From Candidatus Nanoarchaeia archaeon (GTDB lineage Archaea; Nanobdellota; Nanobdellia; SCGC-AAA011-G17; DATDVL01): a stretch of 64,000 nucleotides of DNA. Below, piece by piece: positions 24,432 to 56,851 of this stretch. The position numbers and the translations under genes are program-made. The stretch covers positions 92,018-156,017 of the forward strand of contig DATDVR010000006.1 of NCBI GenBank assembly GCA_035289925.1, in the 5' to 3' direction. How positions within the stretch are numbered: position 1 is the stretch's first letter; each line of letters begins with the position of its first letter. The notes under the pieces were generated by a model. The model was not told the origin of the DNA and searched no databases. It saw nothing but the letters and a program-made list of their open reading frames with translations.

Positions 24432-27400
24432 AAGAATATTTTGAAAAGCTGGGCAATGAAGTGAAGAGAAGCTATGATATAGCTAGCGAAGCAAGAAAGA
24501 AAGGGCTTGATCCGAGCGGGGATGTTGAAGTCATGCTTGCATCAAAGATGGCTGAGAGAGTAAAAGGCATTGTAAGCACGGTTTCTCCTCAAATTGGCGA
24601 GAGCAAGATTGTTGAGAGAATTGATGAACTTGAAAAACAATATGGAGCGCAAGACTGGAGAGTTGCCTTTATATTGTCCTTGGAAGTTGCCCAAGAAAAG
24701 CTCTGCAAATTCAAAGACAAAAGAGAGGCTGCTGAAGTTGGATTAAGAGTCGGGCTTGCTTACCTTACAAACGGGGTTTTAAGCGCTCCTTTGGAAGGGT
24801 TTGTTCAATTAAAATTAAGAAAGAGAAAAAAAGACGGCAAAGAATACTGGGCGTTGTATTTTTCTGGTCCAATAAGAAGCGCAGGCACAACTGCAGTCTG
24901 TGTTTTTGCTGCTGTTGCGGATTATGTAAGAAAAGAACTTGGATATGCTGAATACGACCCTACTGAAGAAGAGGTTAATAGAATTGTATCTGAACTTTAT
25001 GATTTCCATGACAGAATAACTAATTTACAATACTTGCCTACTGAAGAAGAGATAACATTCATGGTTTCCAACTTGCCTATACAGATTGATGGAGATCCAA
25101 GCGAAACTATGGAAGTAAGCAATTTCAAGGATTTAGACAGGATTGATACTAACAGATTGAGAAATGGAGTTTGTTTAGTTGTTGGTGAAGGGCTATGCCA
25201 GAAGGCTGCAAAATTCTATTCTAAATTCAGCAACATGATGAAGGATTTTGGAATGGAAAGATGGAAATTTCTTGGAGATTATATTGCTCTGCAAAAAAAA
25301 TTGAGGGCAAAGGATGTCTCGAAAGACGATGTAAAAATAAAACCAGACTTTAACTTCATGAAAGATGTTGTCGCTGGCAGGCCAATATTCACACATCCAA
25401 TGGCAAAAGGTGGTTTTAGATTAAGATATGGAAGAAGCAGGGTCTCTGGATTTTCAGCACAGGCAATACATCCTGCTACGATGTGTATCCTTGACGGCTT
25501 TTTAGCTTCTGGCAGCCAATTAAAAGTTGAGAGGCCTGGAAAAGCATGCGTGCTTGGAAGCTGCGACACAATTGAAGGCCCAATTGTAAAACTAAAAGAT
25601 GGAAGCGTGGTATTTGCAGAAACTGAAGAGCAAGCAAAAAAAGTAAATGACTATGTTGAGGAAATATTATACTTAGGAGATTTGTTAATCAATTATGGAG
25701 ATTTTTTGAACAGAGGACATGTTCTAGTCCCTGCAGGCTATTGTGAAGAGTGGTGGCAACAGGAAGCAGAGCATCCTGAAAAAAATATTGATGTTGATAC
25801 TGCAATTGAACTTTGTAAAAAAGGAAAACCTTTGCATCCGAGATATACATTTCATTGGAACGACATAACAAGAGAACAATTTTTTAGTGTAATTGATTTG
25901 CTAAAAAAATCTTCAATAAAAGATGACAAAATAGTATTGCCTTTAGACTATAACATCAAAGATGACGTTGAGAATAAAGATCCAAAGAGAGCATTAGAAA
26001 TTCTTGGAGTGCCACATAGAGTTGTGATAAATGAGCATATGATAATTGAAGGAGACTGGGCGAAAGCTCTGCTGTTTACTTTAGGTGACTTTAATTTTGA
26101 ACCTAACGACAATGTTCTTGAAATGCTCAACAAGAAAAATAGCTTTTTGATAAGGGACAAGTCTGGAACTTTTATAGGTGCGAGAATGGGGAGGCCTGAA
26201 AAGGCAAAGATGAGAAAATTGAAAGGAAGCCCGCAGGCGTTGTTTCCTGTTGGAGCGCAAGGCGGAAGAATGAGAGACTTCAGATCTGCTTTAGAAAAAG
26301 GATTTGTCAAATCTGACTTCAATTTAAGAAAATGCGAGAAGTGCAACCAGGAAACAGTATACAAGCTATGCGAGACCTGCGGAAATGAAACAAAGCAGCT
26401 TTATTATTGCGACGAATGCAAAATAGTAAAAGACAAAAAATGCCATGAAAGAAGCTTCACATACAGCAGCCAGAAACTTGACATACACAAATACTTCAAT
26501 AAAGCCTTGGAAATCATAGGAACAAGAGAATATCCAGAATTAATCAAAGGAGTAAAGGGAACTATGAATGAAGACCATACTCCTGAGAATCTTGTAAAAG
26601 GAATTTTAAGAGCAATGAATGGACTTTATGTGAATAAGGATGGTACTATAAGATATGACATGACTGAAACTCCTATAACACATTTCAAACCTAAGGAAAT
26701 TGGAACTTCTGTTGCAAAATTGAAAGAACTTGGATATGAAAAAGACTGCTATGGAGTAGATTTGGTAAGCGAAGAACAGATATGCGAATTGAAAGTTCAA
26801 GACTTGATACTACCTGCATGCCCTGACAGTCTTGAAGAAGGGGCTGATGAAGTTTTATTCAGAATTGGGAAGTTTGTCGATGACCTGATGGAAAAATTCT
26901 ACAAATTGCCAAGATTTTACAACTTTAAAACAAAAAAGGATATTGTTGGAAGCCTGGTTTTAGGATTGAGCCCGCACACTTCTGCAGGCATTGTAGGAAG
27001 AGTAATAGGTTTTTCAAAAACTCAGGGATTCTTGGCACATCCTACCTACCATTCGATAATGAGGCGCGATTGTGACGGAGATGAAGCCTGCATAATATTG
27101 CTTATGGACGCCCTTATCAATTTTTCAAGAGGATTTTTGCCTGCACATAGAGGAGGAAAGCAGGATGAACCTCTAGTATTGACTACAAAAATAATACCTA
27201 AGGAAGTAGATGACATGGTATTTGATATGGACATCTGCTGGAAATATCCTTTGCAACTTTACAATGCAGCATTGGAATATAAAAGCCCAAAGGAAGTCAA
27301 GATTGAAAAATTAGGGATGTTTTTAGGAACACCAAGAGAATATGAAGGCTATGGATTTACACATGACACTTCAGACTTTAATAATGGTGTAAAATGCAGC

Positions 27401-27817
27401 ACTTACAAATCAATACCTACGATGCTTGAAAAAGTCCAGAAACAGATGAGGGTTGCTGAAAAACTTAGAGCAGTTGATGAAGTTGATGTTGCTGGATTGA
27501 TAATTGACAGGCACTTCATGAGAGACATAAAAGGAAACTTGAGAAAGTTCTCACAGCAGGAATTTAGATGTGTTGAGTGCAATGAGAAATATAGAAGACC
27601 CCCATTGCAAGGAAACTGTATCAAATGCGGAGGAAAATTATTGTTTACTGTATCTGAAGGGAATATATTAAAATATTTAGAGCCTTCTCTTATGCTTGCT
27701 GAGAAGTATGACTTGGCACCTTATCTTAAGCAGAACTTGAAGATAACTAAAGCTAGAATTGAAAGCATATTTGGGAAAGATGAAACCAAGCAAGAAGCAT
27801 TGAAGAAGTGGTTTTAG
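24428..27817 (+). CDS. DNA polymerase D large subunit (DP2)
   Basis: GPIRSAGTT, GGFRLRYGRSR, RRDCDGDE, Zn fingers; 1129 aa, no intein. Confidence 0.97.
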   Translation: MKEYFEKLGNEVKRSYDIASEARKKGLDPSGDVEVMLASKMAERVKGIVSTVSPQIGESKIVERIDELEKQYGAQDWRVAFILSLEVAQEKLCKFKDKREAAEVGLRVGLAYLTNGVLSAPLEGFVQLKLRKRKKDGKEYWALYFSGPIRSAGTTAVCVFAAVADYVRKELGYAEYDPTEEEVNRIVSELYDFHDRITNLQYLPTEEEITFMVSNLPIQIDGDPSETMEVSNFKDLDRIDTNRLRNGVCLVVGEGLCQKAAKFYSKFSNMMKDFGMERWKFLGDYIALQKKLRAKDVSKDDVKIKPDFNFMKDVVAGRPIFTHPMAKGGFRLRYGRSRVSGFSAQAIHPATMCILDGFLASGSQLKVERPGKACVLGSCDTIEGPIVKLKDGSVVFAETEEQAKKVNDYVEEILYLGDLLINYGDFLNRGHVLVPAGYCEEWWQQEAEHPEKNIDVDTAIELCKKGKPLHPRYTFHWNDITREQFFSVIDLLKKSSIKDDKIVLPLDYNIKDDVENKDPKRALEILGVPHRVVINEHMIIEGDWAKALLFTLGDFNFEPNDNVLEMLNKKNSFLIRDKSGTFIGARMGRPEKAKMRKLKGSPQALFPVGAQGGRMRDFRSALEKGFVKSDFNLRKCEKCNQETVYKLCETCGNETKQLYYCDECKIVKDKKCHERSFTYSSQKLDIHKYFNKALEIIGTREYPELIKGVKGTMNEDHTPENLVKGILRAMNGLYVNKDGTIRYDMTETPITHFKPKEIGTSVAKLKELGYEKDCYGVDLVSEEQICELKVQDLILPACPDSLEEGADEVLFRIGKFVDDLMEKFYKLPRFYNFKTKKDIVGSLVLGLSPHTSAGIVGRVIGFSKTQGFLAHPTYHSIMRRDCDGDEACIILLMDALINFSRGFLPAHRGGKQDEPLVLTTKIIPKEVDDMVFDMDICWKYPLQLYNAALEYKSPKEVKIEKLGMFLGTPREYEGYGFTHDTSDFNNGVKCSTYKSIPTMLEKVQKQMRVAEKLRAVDEVDVAGLIIDRHFMRDIKGNLRKFSQQEFRCVECNEKYRRPPLQGNCIKCGGKLLFTVSEGNILKYLEPSLMLAEKYDLAPYLKQNLKITKARIESIFGKDETKQEALKKWF

Positions 27818-27866
27818 TTATGACTTTATAGTAACTACAAAATCACAAGCTTTATATACTAGTAAA

Positions 27867-28667
27867 ATGCTTATTTTTACCATGACGGCTGATACTTTAG
27901 TAAATAAAGAAGTAAAGTTATTCTACAATGGAAGCTTAGCTGATGCTCTAGAAAACTGCAATAAAGAAGACTATCAAGTATTATCAATGTCATAAATAGC
28001 AGATGCAAGAATTCAAGCTTCAAAAGAAGATCAATTATGGAGAAACTGGCTAAGCTCAACAAGCATCAGAGCAACAGGAAAGACAAAGCAAGGAAATGCA
28101 GTTGTAGTCTATGCTCATGTTCCAAATCATTTTTCAGAACCTAAAAACATAAGAAATGCAATAGAACAAGGTTTAGTTAATGGTGCTGGAAAATTACCAG
28201 AAAAAGAATTTCAAAGACTTTTAGACTTAAAAGATGATAAAAATGTATTTGTAATAGATTATAATGCTTTAAAAAGTTCAACTTCAGGTGTAATTCCAGT
28301 TTTAAAAGCTTTAGCTCATCCTCAGACAGTTCCATTTTTAGGCGGAGAGGAAAGAGCTCAAAAATATCTAGAAAAACATTCTCAATTTTATGGTAAAAAT
28401 ATTGGAGTCTGGCATTCAGATGATTTAAGGAAAGAACCATTAGGTCGCCTTTTGTTTGTTGGCTACTACGTCAACTACGGTCTTTATGGCGACTACGACC
28501 TTGACATCAATGGTAGATACGCTGGGGTACGTGCAGTCGGCGCGCAAAAATCCCCAAAGGAAATAAAAGCACCAACTTTGGAAGATATTACAAAAGAATT
28601 AAATCCTTTTGTTTTAGAGAAAGATAGGAAAGAAGTTCTAGAAATATTAAGGAAATACGTTAAATAA
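27867..28667 (+). pseudogene. DGR target gene copy 1 with in-frame TAA at codon 43
   Basis: Colinear with 44659..45459 (801 nt); CCA GAA changed to TCA TAA at 27990-27995. Confidence 0.88.
28446..28529 (+). repeat. DGR variable repeat VR1
   Basis: 84-nt match to TR; 10 mismatches, all at TR adenines. Confidence 0.95.
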
Positions 28668-40387: not shown

Positions 40388-44612
<4,225 letters not shown>

Positions 44613-44658: not shown

Positions 44659-45459
44659 ATGCTTATTTTTACTATGACAGCTGATACTTTAGTAAATAAA
44701 GAAGTAAAGTTATTCTACAATGGAAGCTTAGCTGATGCTCTAGAAAACTGCAATAAAGAAGGCTATCAAGCATTATCAATGCCAGAAATAGCAGATGCAA
44801 GAATTCAAGCTTCAAAAGAAGATCAATTATGGAGAAACTGGCTAAGCTCAACAAGCATCAGAGCAACAGGAAAGACAAAGCAAGGAAATGCTGTCGTAGT
44901 TTATGCACATGTTCCAAATCATTTTTCAGAACCTAAAAACATCAGAACAGCAATAGAACAAGGCTTAGTTAATGGCGCTGGAAAATTACCACAGGAAGAA
45001 TTTCAAAGGCTTTTAGATTTAAAAGACGACAAAAAGGTATTTGTAATTGATTATAATAAATTAAAGAGTTCAACTTCAGATGTAATTCAAGTTTCTAAAG
45101 CTTTAAAGCATTCTCAAACAGTTCCATTTCTAGGTGGACAAGAAAGAGCTGAAAAATATCTAGAAAGACATTCTCAAGTTTATGGAAAAAATATTGGAGT
45201 CTGGCATTCAGACGATTTAAGAGATGAACCATTAGCTCGCCTTTTGTTTGTTGGCAACTACGTCAACTACGGTCTTGATGGCATCAGCGACCTTGTCCTC
45301 AATGGTAGTTTCGCTGGGGTACGTGCAGTCGGCGCGCAAAAATCTCCAGTGGAAATTAAAGCACCAACTTTGGAAGATATCTTAAAAGTTTCAAGGGATT
45401 TTGTTCCAAGGACATGCAGAGATGCTTTCAAAGAAGAAATAAGAAAACTTTATCAATAA
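44659..45459 (+). CDS. DGR target gene copy 2 (VR near C-terminus, probable CLec-like fold)
   Basis: Contains VR2; upstream of TR and RT; true start probably MTADTL at 44674. Confidence 0.92.
   Translation: MLIFTMTADTLVNKEVKLFYNGSLADALENCNKEGYQALSMPEIADARIQASKEDQLWRNWLSSTSIRATGKTKQGNAVVVYAHVPNHFSEPKNIRTAIEQGLVNGAGKLPQEEFQRLLDLKDDKKVFVIDYNKLKSSTSDVIQVSKALKHSQTVPFLGGQERAEKYLERHSQVYGKNIGVWHSDDLRDEPLARLLFVGNYVNYGLDGISDLVLNGSFAGVRAVGAQKSPVEIKAPTLEDILKVSRDFVPRTCRDAFKEEIRKLYQ
45238..45321 (+). repeat. DGR variable repeat VR2
   Basis: 13 mismatches to TR over 84 nt, all at TR adenines. Confidence 0.95.
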
Positions 45460-45663
45460 TTTTATATAATCGTTTTTTTCTTTAATATATGCTTTAGCAT
45501 AGCTTAGCTGATGAATAACTTTTAGTTATGAAGTTAAGGTTTGTTAGGCTACACGCTCTTTTACTAAGGCTGTAAAAAGCTATAAAATTCAGCTGCAACA
45601 TCTAGTAGCTAGTCGAAAACGTGAAGCAGCAGTGATATAACAAGTAAGAGAGCTAGCTTGCGT

Positions 45664-45747
45664 CGCCTTTTGTTTGTTGGCAACAACGACAACAACGGTC
45701 TTAATGGCAACAACGACCTTGACAACAATGGTAGATACGCTGGAATA
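45664..45747 (+). repeat. DGR template repeat TR
   Basis: Non-coding, rich in AAC/AAT/GAC triplets, immediately upstream of RT. Confidence 0.95.
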
Positions 45748-45756
45748 ACCTAACAA

Positions 45757-46850
45757 ATGCTAGAGCTTTTAACAATGAAGACTTACAATAATTTATGGAA
45801 GCAACTTTGCAGCTACACAAATCTTTTAATGGCTTTTAACAATGCTAAGAAAAGAAAGTCTAAAAAGGATTATGTCCTTAAATTTGAAAAAGACTTGGAT
45901 AAAAACTTAGAAGAACTAAGATTAGAACTGTTATTTCACACTTACAATCCAAAACCTTTAAGGACATTTATTTTAAGGGACCCTAAAACAAGAAAAATCT
46001 CCAAGTCAGATTTTAGGGACAGGATAGTTCATCATGCCTTGTGCAATATTTTAGAGCCTATATTAAGCAAACCCTTCATTCATGATTCCTACGCAAATAG
46101 AAAGGGCAAAGGGAATCTAAAGGCTTTGAATAGATTTGATTATTTTAAAAGAAAGGTAAGCAAAAATAATAATAAAAATTGCTATGTCTTGAAAGCTGAC
46201 ATTAAACATTATTTTGATGAAGTTCCTCATGAAGTTTTATTGAATATCTTAAAGAAAAACATTAAAGATGCAAAGATTATTTGGCTAATAAGCAAGATAT
46301 TAAGCAATTTCAATTCTAGAGTAAAAGGAATAGGAATGCCCCTAGGAAATTTAACATCACAGTTCTTCGCTAATATTTATCTTAATGAATTAGACCAGTT
46401 TGTAAAGCATAAACTTAAAGTAAAATATTATATTAGATATGTTGATGATTTTGTCATTTTTGATTCATCTCAAGAAAAATTACTCGAGGGGGGGGGGCGA
46501 TTAACGATTTTTTAAAAGAAAGTTTGAAGTTAGAATTGCATCCAAATAAATCTAAGATAATAAACCTTGATAAAGGCATTAATTTTCTAGGTTTTAGGAT
46601 TTTTTATTACCATAAGCTTCTAAGAAAAGTAAACAAGAGAAAATTGCTAAAAAGAATGAAAAAGTACAAGGATCTGTATGATTCTAAAAAAATTGATTAT
46701 GACAAGATTTATTGCTCTTTCTGCGGCTGGAAGGGCTATGCTAAAAATGCAAATACCTTTAATCTAAGAAAAGAAGTAATTAAATTTCTTGATAAATACT
46801 TTCCAGGAGAAATATCTACGGGAGAATTAAATAAATACTTAAAATTATAA
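45757..46850 (+). pseudogene. DGR reverse transcriptase, frameshifted at G10 (46488-46497)
   Basis: RDRIVHH, GMPLGNLTSQFFANIYL, YVDD; downstream frame INDFLKESLKLELHPNKS...INFLGFRI. Confidence 0.9.
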
Positions 46851-56068: not shown

Positions 56069-56851
56069 ATGCTTATTTTTACCATGACAGCTGATACTTT
56101 AGTAAATAAAGAATTAAAGTTATTCTACAGTAACAGATTAGCTGATGCTCTAGAAAACTGCCAAGAAGCAGGCTATAAACCATTATCAATGCCAGAAATA
56201 GCAGATGCAAGAATTCAAGCTAAAAAAGAAGATCAATTATGGAGAAACTGGCTAAGCTCAACAAGCATCAGAGCAACAGGAAAGACAAAGCAAGGAAATG
56301 CAGTTGTAGTTTATGCACATGTTCCAAATCATTTTTCAGAACCTAAAAACATCAGAACAGCAATAGAACAAGGATTGATAAATGGCGCTGGAAGATTACC
56401 ACAGGAAGAATTTCAAAGACTTTTAGAATTAAAAGATGATAAAAAGGTATTTGTAATAGATTATAATAAATTAAAGAGTTCAACTTCAGATGTAATTCAA
56501 GTTTCTAAAGCTTTAAAACATCCTCAAACAGTTCCATTTTTAGGTGGACAAGAAAGAGCAGAAAAATATCTAGAAAAACATTCTCGAGTTTATGGTAAAA
56601 ATATTGGAGTCTGGCATTCAGATGATTTAAGAGATGAACCATTAGCTCGCCTTTTGTTTGTTGGCAACTACGTCGACAGCGGTCTTAATGGCTTCAACTT
56701 CCTTGACCTCTATGGTAGATTCGCTGGGGTACGTGCAGTCGGCGCGCAAAAATCTCCAAAGGAAATAAAGACACCAACTTTAGAAGACATTTTAAATTTA
56801 ACAGCAAAACTTTCTCCTGAAGATAGAGAAGAGCTTAAAAAAAGATTATAA
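56069..56851 (+). CDS. DGR target gene copy 3 (remote)
   Basis: Paralog of 44659..45459; contains VR3. Confidence 0.92.
   Translation: MLIFTMTADTLVNKELKLFYSNRLADALENCQEAGYKPLSMPEIADARIQAKKEDQLWRNWLSSTSIRATGKTKQGNAVVVYAHVPNHFSEPKNIRTAIEQGLINGAGRLPQEEFQRLLELKDDKKVFVIDYNKLKSSTSDVIQVSKALKHPQTVPFLGGQERAEKYLEKHSRVYGKNIGVWHSDDLRDEPLARLLFVGNYVDSGLNGFNFLDLYGRFAGVRAVGAQKSPKEIKTPTLEDILNLTAKLSPEDREELKKRL
56648..56731 (+). repeat. DGR variable repeat VR3
   Basis: 14 mismatches to TR, 13 at adenines and one G-to-T. Confidence 0.93.

Follow-up and report, generated by a model that had tools for sequence, protein, structure and literature searches.

A Poly-G Tract Divides the RT Gene of an Archaeal DGR

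Why is the reverse transcriptase (RT) gene of an archaeal DGR interrupted by a run of ten guanines when both of its parts are otherwise intact, and could this run be a switch for hypermutation? We addressed this question in the window (the whole 64-kb stretch of DNA analyzed here; 33% GC), which belongs to a 916-kb assembly of 16 contigs with 33% GC and a completeness of 88.5%. The ten consecutive guanines lie at 46,488-46,497 on the forward strand (context CTCGA-G10-CGATTAAC), on the sense strand of the RT gene and 15 codons past the YVDD motif, and are followed directly by CGA (46,498-46,500). The RT frame opened at 45,757 (alternative start at 45,775) extends on the forward strand to a stop at 46,515, and encodes 252 amino acids that contain the RT motifs up to YVDD and end in ...EGGGRLTIF (the frame reads ...RYVDDFVIFDSSQEKLLEGGGRLTIF, then the stop). 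The frame entered at 46,497, which is shifted by -1 relative to the N-terminal frame, reads AINDFLKESLKLELHPNKSKI...KYLKL up to a stop at 46,850 (46,497-46,850, forward strand). G10 thus throws the last 117 codons of the RT, its C-terminal third, out of frame.

We simulated the products of other tract lengths, and a full-length protein was obtained from G8, G11, and G14 only: G11 gives an RT of 364 amino acids (...LLEGGGAINDFL...), which is exactly the length of its homologs, and G8 one of 363 amino acids (...LLEGGAINDFL...), as against truncated RTs of 252 amino acids for G10 and 248 for G9. As in contingency loci, a homopolymer of at least eight residues therefore lies within the frame, and its length (in these simulations) toggles between full-length and truncated RT. 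The original prediction, made from the sequence, had claimed that ten guanines after YVDD break the RT frame and that G11 or G8 would restore it, and the window sequence, the two frame stops and the simulated products agree with it. Its further statement that both sides of the tract are otherwise intact is borne out by frames that stay open to 46,515 and 46,850 and by purifying selection downstream of the tract (see below). G10 is also, as had been observed, the longest G run in this AT-rich window, and indeed the longest run of either G or C; the second longest is a G7. The N-terminal frame matches RVT_1 in Pfam (PF00078, E-value 2e-20), and the best solved relative of the RT is the Bordetella phage bRT (8UB7, E-value 7e-44, with the in-frame form of a paralog as the query).

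The DGR Cassette and Its AvpA Targets

The element around the tract has the components of a DGR, namely adenine-confined differences between template repeat (TR) and variable repeats (VRs), an RT of the DGR clade beside the TR, and an AvpA-type target. The TR, found by comparison of the TR/VR repeats, is located at 45,663-45,743 (forward strand), and the first VR at 45,237-45,317 (forward strand), at the 3′-end of the neighboring AvpA gene; the two differ at 11 positions, each of them an adenine of the TR. This target gene (44,659-45,459, forward strand) encodes 266 amino acids and matches AvpA (PDB 5IOO) over its full length with an E-value of 6e-89, a relation to the C-type lectin fold that is drawn from sequence comparison alone. 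Two remote AvpA paralogs, each sharing 83% amino acid identity with the TR-adjacent target, contain VRs related to the same TR: the gene at 27,867-28,655 (forward strand; VR2 at 28,445-28,525), with 8 of 8 differences at adenines, and the gene at 56,069-56,842 (forward strand; VR3 at 56,647-56,727), with 11 of 12. Judged by sequence, this is one DGR, in which one TR and one RT serve three AvpA targets over 29 kb. Among the window ORFs there is no ORF of avd size between the target and the RT; the gap between them (45,460-45,756) contains the TR. In the other two cassettes of the genome, TR/VR differences are at adenines in 14 of 14 cases and at 12 A-sites, respectively. Because the differences from the TR are A-only at three VRs, and because the target is of the AvpA type, we consider the element a bona fide DGR of the described archaeal type, and one that was active in the past.

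Several further observations concern the neighborhood of this cassette. A CDC48/AAA ATPase of 1,268 amino acids, encoded just upstream of the DGR (40,806-44,612), contains an intein with a LAGLIDADG endonuclease domain (Pfam). One metagenome contig (L064, JGI 3300002502) matches the window at about 25,965-28,564 and then from 45,757 onward, so that the AvpA copy at ∼27.8 kb and its upstream neighbor, PolD-DP2, are fused directly to the TR/RT and ∼17 kb are skipped; the junction stems either from recombination or a deletion between AvpA paralogs, or from a mis-join by the assembler across the repeat. Another contig (L065, SAMN03842437) shows 12 clustered differences at 44,892-45,048, inside the AvpA gene and outside its VR, and none elsewhere in 6.7 kb; this patch may have been acquired by recombination from another AvpA paralog.

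Three RT Paralogs with a Tract at the Same Site

The 916-kb genome contains only three G or C runs of at least ten residues, and all three are found at the same codon position of three DGR RT paralogs, on the sense strand of the RT: the window copy (contig C6, 138,505-138,514; G10, in need of +1 or -2 G), the C5 paralog (contig C5, 143,011-143,020; G10, in need of -1 or +2 G), and the C7 paralog (contig C7, 28,528-28,538; G11, in need of +1 or -2 G). The three tracts (G10, G10, and G11) are thus all out of frame, and all three are directly followed by CGATT(A/G)A. Besides the tract, none of the three RT copies contains a stop or another frameshift. The RTs of C6 and C5 share 88% protein identity at a dS of about 1, and their dN/dS is 0.098 downstream of the tract and 0.068 upstream. 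It follows from the low value downstream of the tract that, for most of the time after C6 and C5 diverged, this region was read in the correct frame. Between paralogs, we found no local peak of identity around the tract, which would have been a sign of short-patch gene conversion. We detected no MutS or NucS mismatch-repair gene in the genome, an absence that is uncertain at 88.5% completeness. The absence of mismatch repair contributes to the phase variability of poly-G tracts in Campylobacter and Helicobacter.

Reproducibility and Length Variation of the Tract

The exact 252-amino acid product, which requires G10, is encoded by 10 contigs that come from five or more independent assemblies (ENA and JGI records, Rifle samples included), and the contig DNA behind it reads G10 with essentially identical flanks; the assemblies that carry G10 were made with different assemblers. 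In the window's own assembly, open frames continue across 70 A-runs of at least eight residues, and no more than one such run has the signature of a shift, so the assembly is not generally prone to homopolymer errors. A poly-G artefact of two-colour sequencing or of assembly, which had been named as the strong alternative when the tract was noticed, does not withstand these observations: the run recurs in at least five assemblies inside conserved coding sequence, and the poly-G produced by dark cycles is unlike a run placed between two well-conserved halves of one gene. A genuine sequencing artefact of this kind does occur in a public MAG of the order (L050, G063:C22, at a contig end), in which G9 is followed by AGATCGGAAGAG, an Illumina adapter; it is a useful negative example of an artefactual G-run.

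We looked up the predicted products of different tract lengths by exact sequence in a collection of 15 billion proteins. For the window copy only G10 was found: the predicted G7, G8, G9, G11, G12, and G13 products are absent from the collection (by exact look-up), and the left flank of the window tract joined to G8 had no match in metagenome contigs, a set from which records of the window's own genome may be missing. The C5 paralog has G10 on 10 contigs, and an in-frame G9 form of it (P0004; full length at 370 amino acids, with one substitution) was found in a protein-level assembly. The C7 paralog has G11 in five samples and G10 in three others, with no sample shared; the G10 was verified in the DNA, and its 6.7 kb of flank differ at 0-5 positions. 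For C7, too, an in-frame G9 form (P0013, partial) comes from protein-level assembly. The in-frame forms of the paralogs are known solely from such protein-level read assembly (SRC), where read errors are possible. The sample-specific G10 and G11 calls of C7 fit a drifting hypermutable tract better than assembler noise. Two other candidates were set aside: P0007 (328 amino acids), which reads through the site, is from a chimeric contig with an unrelated bacterial-type RT, and P0009 is from a messy protein-level assembly.

G-Runs in RT Genes across the Archaeal Order

We extended the search to 240 genomes of the same archaeal order, 108 of which contain DGR-type RTs, mostly as open frames of 350-420 amino acids. 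At the site of the window tract, none of the best ∼28 homologs has a G-run (they read, for example, ...KEILEKNKEKINLFL...); RTs of the same family read (W/Y)K(E/D)KI at this position. The glycine run that the original prediction had suggested looking for in homologous RTs is therefore absent at the exact site in other species, and runs are found elsewhere in the gene instead. For a census we retrieved 71 runs (G9 or longer) from ∼126 genomes. RT genes, which are about 0.1% of the DNA, contain 23 of these runs, and 22 of the 23 are poly-G on the sense strand; G-runs are thus more than 100-fold enriched in the DGR RT genes of the order. Over-representation and retention of a tract in a gene that is otherwise intact, as seen here, are typical of contingency loci.

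Over the 240 genomes, about 35 of ∼200 RT genes (about one in six) bear a sense-strand tract of G7-G15, at one of five sites: the loop before GMPLGN (site A, ∼23 genes), the position after YVDD (site B, three genes, all in the window's genome), the thumb region (site C, three genes), the loop between motifs 2 and 3 (site D, four genes, one of them in the window's own family), and the stretch between LHPDKSK and LLGFR (site E, two genes). One further RT has a poly-C run in its N-terminal part. The frame is kept by about eight of the tracts and broken by about 25, and two more are at contig ends; the 17 out-of-frame tracts that we tabulated need a shift of +1 nt in nine cases and of -1 nt in eight. 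We compared 13 pairs of RTs with a tract, and their pN/pS is 0.16-0.51 downstream of it and 0.11-0.46 upstream, at a pS of 0.4-0.8. Going by these substitution patterns, the tract-broken RT genes are maintained and not decaying.

In the (query-anchored) tree of the RTs, those with a site-A tract are placed in at least eight clades that are interleaved with tract-less RTs, and the C7 paralog is placed apart from the C6/C5 pair. A single origin of the site-A tracts appears unlikely from this tree; the tract has apparently been gained, transferred or lost many times, with gains and losses indistinguishable in the tree. One RT of the order (L122, G170:C10) has a frameshift near residue 203 without any G/C run of at least 7, so the association with a tract is not universal among the split RTs of the order.

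A Shared CGA Flank

The triplet CGA follows the run in 19 of the 22 tabulated tracts, and the remainder have CGC, CGT, or ACGA. It is found 3′ of the run at all five sites, and across the RTs it is read in all three codon phases. The string G8CGA occurs 42 times in the 240 genomes, and its backwards control 13 times; RT genes contain, on their sense strand, at least 24 of the 42 occurrences. The sole antisense G8CGA inside an RT (L127, G112:C17:1375-1385) is at the 3′-end of an intact gene, where it is poly-C in the sense of the RT. We offer as a tentative idea, with the odds somewhat against it, that G(n)CGA is a portable nucleotide-level cassette that was repeatedly installed in at least five surface loops of the DGR RT genes of this order, here in two non-sister RT lineages, and that it makes hypermutation stochastically switchable. 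If so, the phase-independent CGA would mark the mechanism of installation or a DNA or RNA signal (a polymerase pause or a slippage element).

A Contingency Tract as the Preferred Explanation

We favor the reading that G10 is a selectively maintained, hypermutable contingency tract that gates the RT, and hence the diversification of the three AvpA targets, and put its probability at roughly 0.65. Slipped-strand mispairing during replication would add or remove a G. Most cells would then carry a truncated, inactive RT (OFF) and keep their three AvpA receptors fixed; in a minority of cells with G11 or G8, the full-length RT (ON) would diversify the three VRs by adenine-specific mutagenic retrohoming. 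If the three RT copies switch independently, targeted hypermutation would come under a control that is graded, heritable, and reversible. Slippage of RNA polymerase or of the ribosome on the long run might also supply RT at a low level from OFF alleles. The phase-variable switch that had been proposed for this locus fits the reproducible tract, its presence in three paralogs, the more than 100-fold enrichment, the mixed frames, the purifying selection, and the length differences of C7; the window copy itself is seen as G10 only. The VRs are identical across the assemblies compared, which is consistent with a population that is currently OFF. All three RT copies are OFF in every contig assembly, and dead genes would look alike. 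The run at site B replaces the conserved (W/Y)K(E/D)K stretch, its aromatic residue included, in the palm helix after the YxDD hairpin (alignment to bRT 8UB7), so that the activity of the in-frame GGG form is only putative. The fraction of about one quarter of tracts in frame would also arise from random miscalls of tract length by assemblers.

Other explanations have to be weighed against this one. Instead of switching by DNA length, the tract could be a site at which RNA polymerase, the ribosome, or both slip, so that a steady small fraction of full-length RT is made at any DNA length; the run would then serve to keep down the expression of a dangerous enzyme, and the frame state of the DNA would be nearly neutral. 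Such recoding would account for frame states that look neutral (about one quarter in frame), since on runs of G9-G15 the tRNA-Gly, or the RNA:DNA hybrid, can pair anew in whichever register; it would also account for three copies that are all out of frame and yet under purifying selection, and for a CGA flank that is kept as nucleotides in all codon phases, which hints at a signal in nucleic acid and not in protein. One form of it, a programmed ribosomal frameshift in a single direction, is ruled out by the mixture of +1 and -1 shifts (nine and eight tracts), by the ∼8 tracts that are in frame, and by the lack of a stimulatory RNA structure downstream (103 nt that fold at -13 kcal/mol, z = -0.17 relative to shuffled sequences). 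An RT that works as two separate polypeptides is likewise ruled out, by the five tract sites, by the in-frame quarter, and by the lack of a conserved restart codon. We regard recoding as the main explanation as unlikely, at odds of about one in six; recoding and phase variation are not exclusive and can coexist.

The remaining alternatives would place the frameshift either in the data or in dead genes. The tract could be real and only its length miscalled, through a systematic Illumina or assembler error, with a true G11 that is in frame and encodes a Gly-rich loop. Long poly-G is error-prone in Illumina data in general; C7 is called G10 or G11 in different assemblies, the C5 tract is interrupted by a T in one assembly (P0003), the G-runs outside RT genes in related MAGs include plain artefacts (such as the adapter-linked G9 of L050), and the G11 product has exactly the length of the homologs. 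Such an error would, however, have to return an identical G10 in 10 contigs from at least five assemblies, as well as the C5 G10 in 10 contigs, and to go in opposite directions in the paralogs (+1, +1 or -2, and -1). The G10 and G11 calls of C7 are moreover sample-specific and unmixed, 70 A-runs of at least eight residues are spanned by intact frames, and wrong lengths would account neither for the G(n)CGA motif nor for G-runs being more than 100-fold enriched in RT genes; we find a miscalled length improbable. The least probable of the explanations, in our judgment, is that the RTs are decaying pseudogenes, killed at a mutational hot spot, and the DGRs dead. It would agree with three copies that are out of frame in all contig assemblies, with VRs that are invariant between samples, and with the loss of a conserved aromatic residue at site B. 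Against it are the lack of other stops and frameshifts in the three copies, the downstream dN/dS of 0.098 at a dS of ∼1, the 13 further RT pairs that are equally constrained before and after the tract, and the retention of tracts over deep divergence at five sites; a neutral hot spot would not be concentrated more than 100-fold in a single gene family, or keep to the sense strand with a CGA flank.

Comparison with Known Systems

Intragenic poly-G or poly-C contingency loci, which undergo phase variation by slipped-strand mispairing, are known from Campylobacter jejuni, Neisseria, Haemophilus, and Helicobacter (PMC4965091, PMC6321876, PMC11868660). As in these bacterial loci, a G-run of at least eight residues in a coding region sets the frame by its length, such tracts are commoner than expected for a genome rich in A and T, related organisms show a mixture of ON and OFF states, and a MutS-type mismatch repair was not found in the (archaeal) genome. 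The present case differs from them in that the host is a DPANN archaeon; in that the putatively gated gene is a hypermutation RT and not a surface or modification gene, so that a mutator would gate a mutator; and in that the tract is found at no fewer than five alternative sites within a single gene family, with a phase-independent CGA as its 3′ flank.

DGRs with AvpA targets are also known from Nanoarchaeota and other DPANN archaea (Paul et al., 2015, PMC4372165; PDB 5IOO; survey PMC5758913), and share with the element described here the bRT-related RT, the adenine-only TR/VR differences, the AvpA target, and the presence of several targets per TR. Unlike the published ones, all three cassettes of this genome have an RT that is broken by a conserved poly-G; a term search of PMC4372165 and PMC5758913 shows that neither mentions an RT with a frameshift or a homopolymer. 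Transcriptional slippage and programmed frameshifting at homopolymers (reviewed in PMC5009743; for example Citrobacter tssM, PMC4256274) resemble our case, since a long homopolymer divides the two frames of one protein and the out-of-frame gene is kept by selection. The known cases have a fixed direction and a tract that is usually A or T; the tracts in the DGR RTs, in contrast, need +1 or -1 equally often, are in frame in one quarter of the relatives, and, in the case of C7, vary in length between samples. The type of DGR and the intragenic poly-G phase variation of bacteria are thus both already known; our literature search found no published description of a poly-G or simple-repeat switch in the RT of a DGR.

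To our knowledge, no prokaryotic system other than DGRs hypermutates proteins in a targeted way, and little has been learned about how DGR activity is controlled. If the contingency reading holds, a switch built into the RT would explain by what means very small archaea that depend on a host avoid paying for mutagenesis of their receptors all the time: a proven AvpA variant would be retained by most cells, and only a sub-population would diversify. Such a switch would also provide a clear and testable case of simple-repeat phase variation in Archaea, with a mutator in control of a mutator. Such DGRs would be systematically missed, or called dead, wherever an annotation pipeline or a DGR survey throws out RTs with a frameshift.

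Poly-G Runs outside RT Genes

The genomes of the order also contain G-runs outside RT genes. Five of these, of G9-G16 (L040, L056, L081, L051, and L106, in G020, G079, G100, G066, and G062, respectively), are at the 5′-ends of, or inside, genes for predicted secreted or surface proteins, and some have a CG(A/T) 3′ flank; they hint at a wider poly-G "phasome" in these DPANN archaea.
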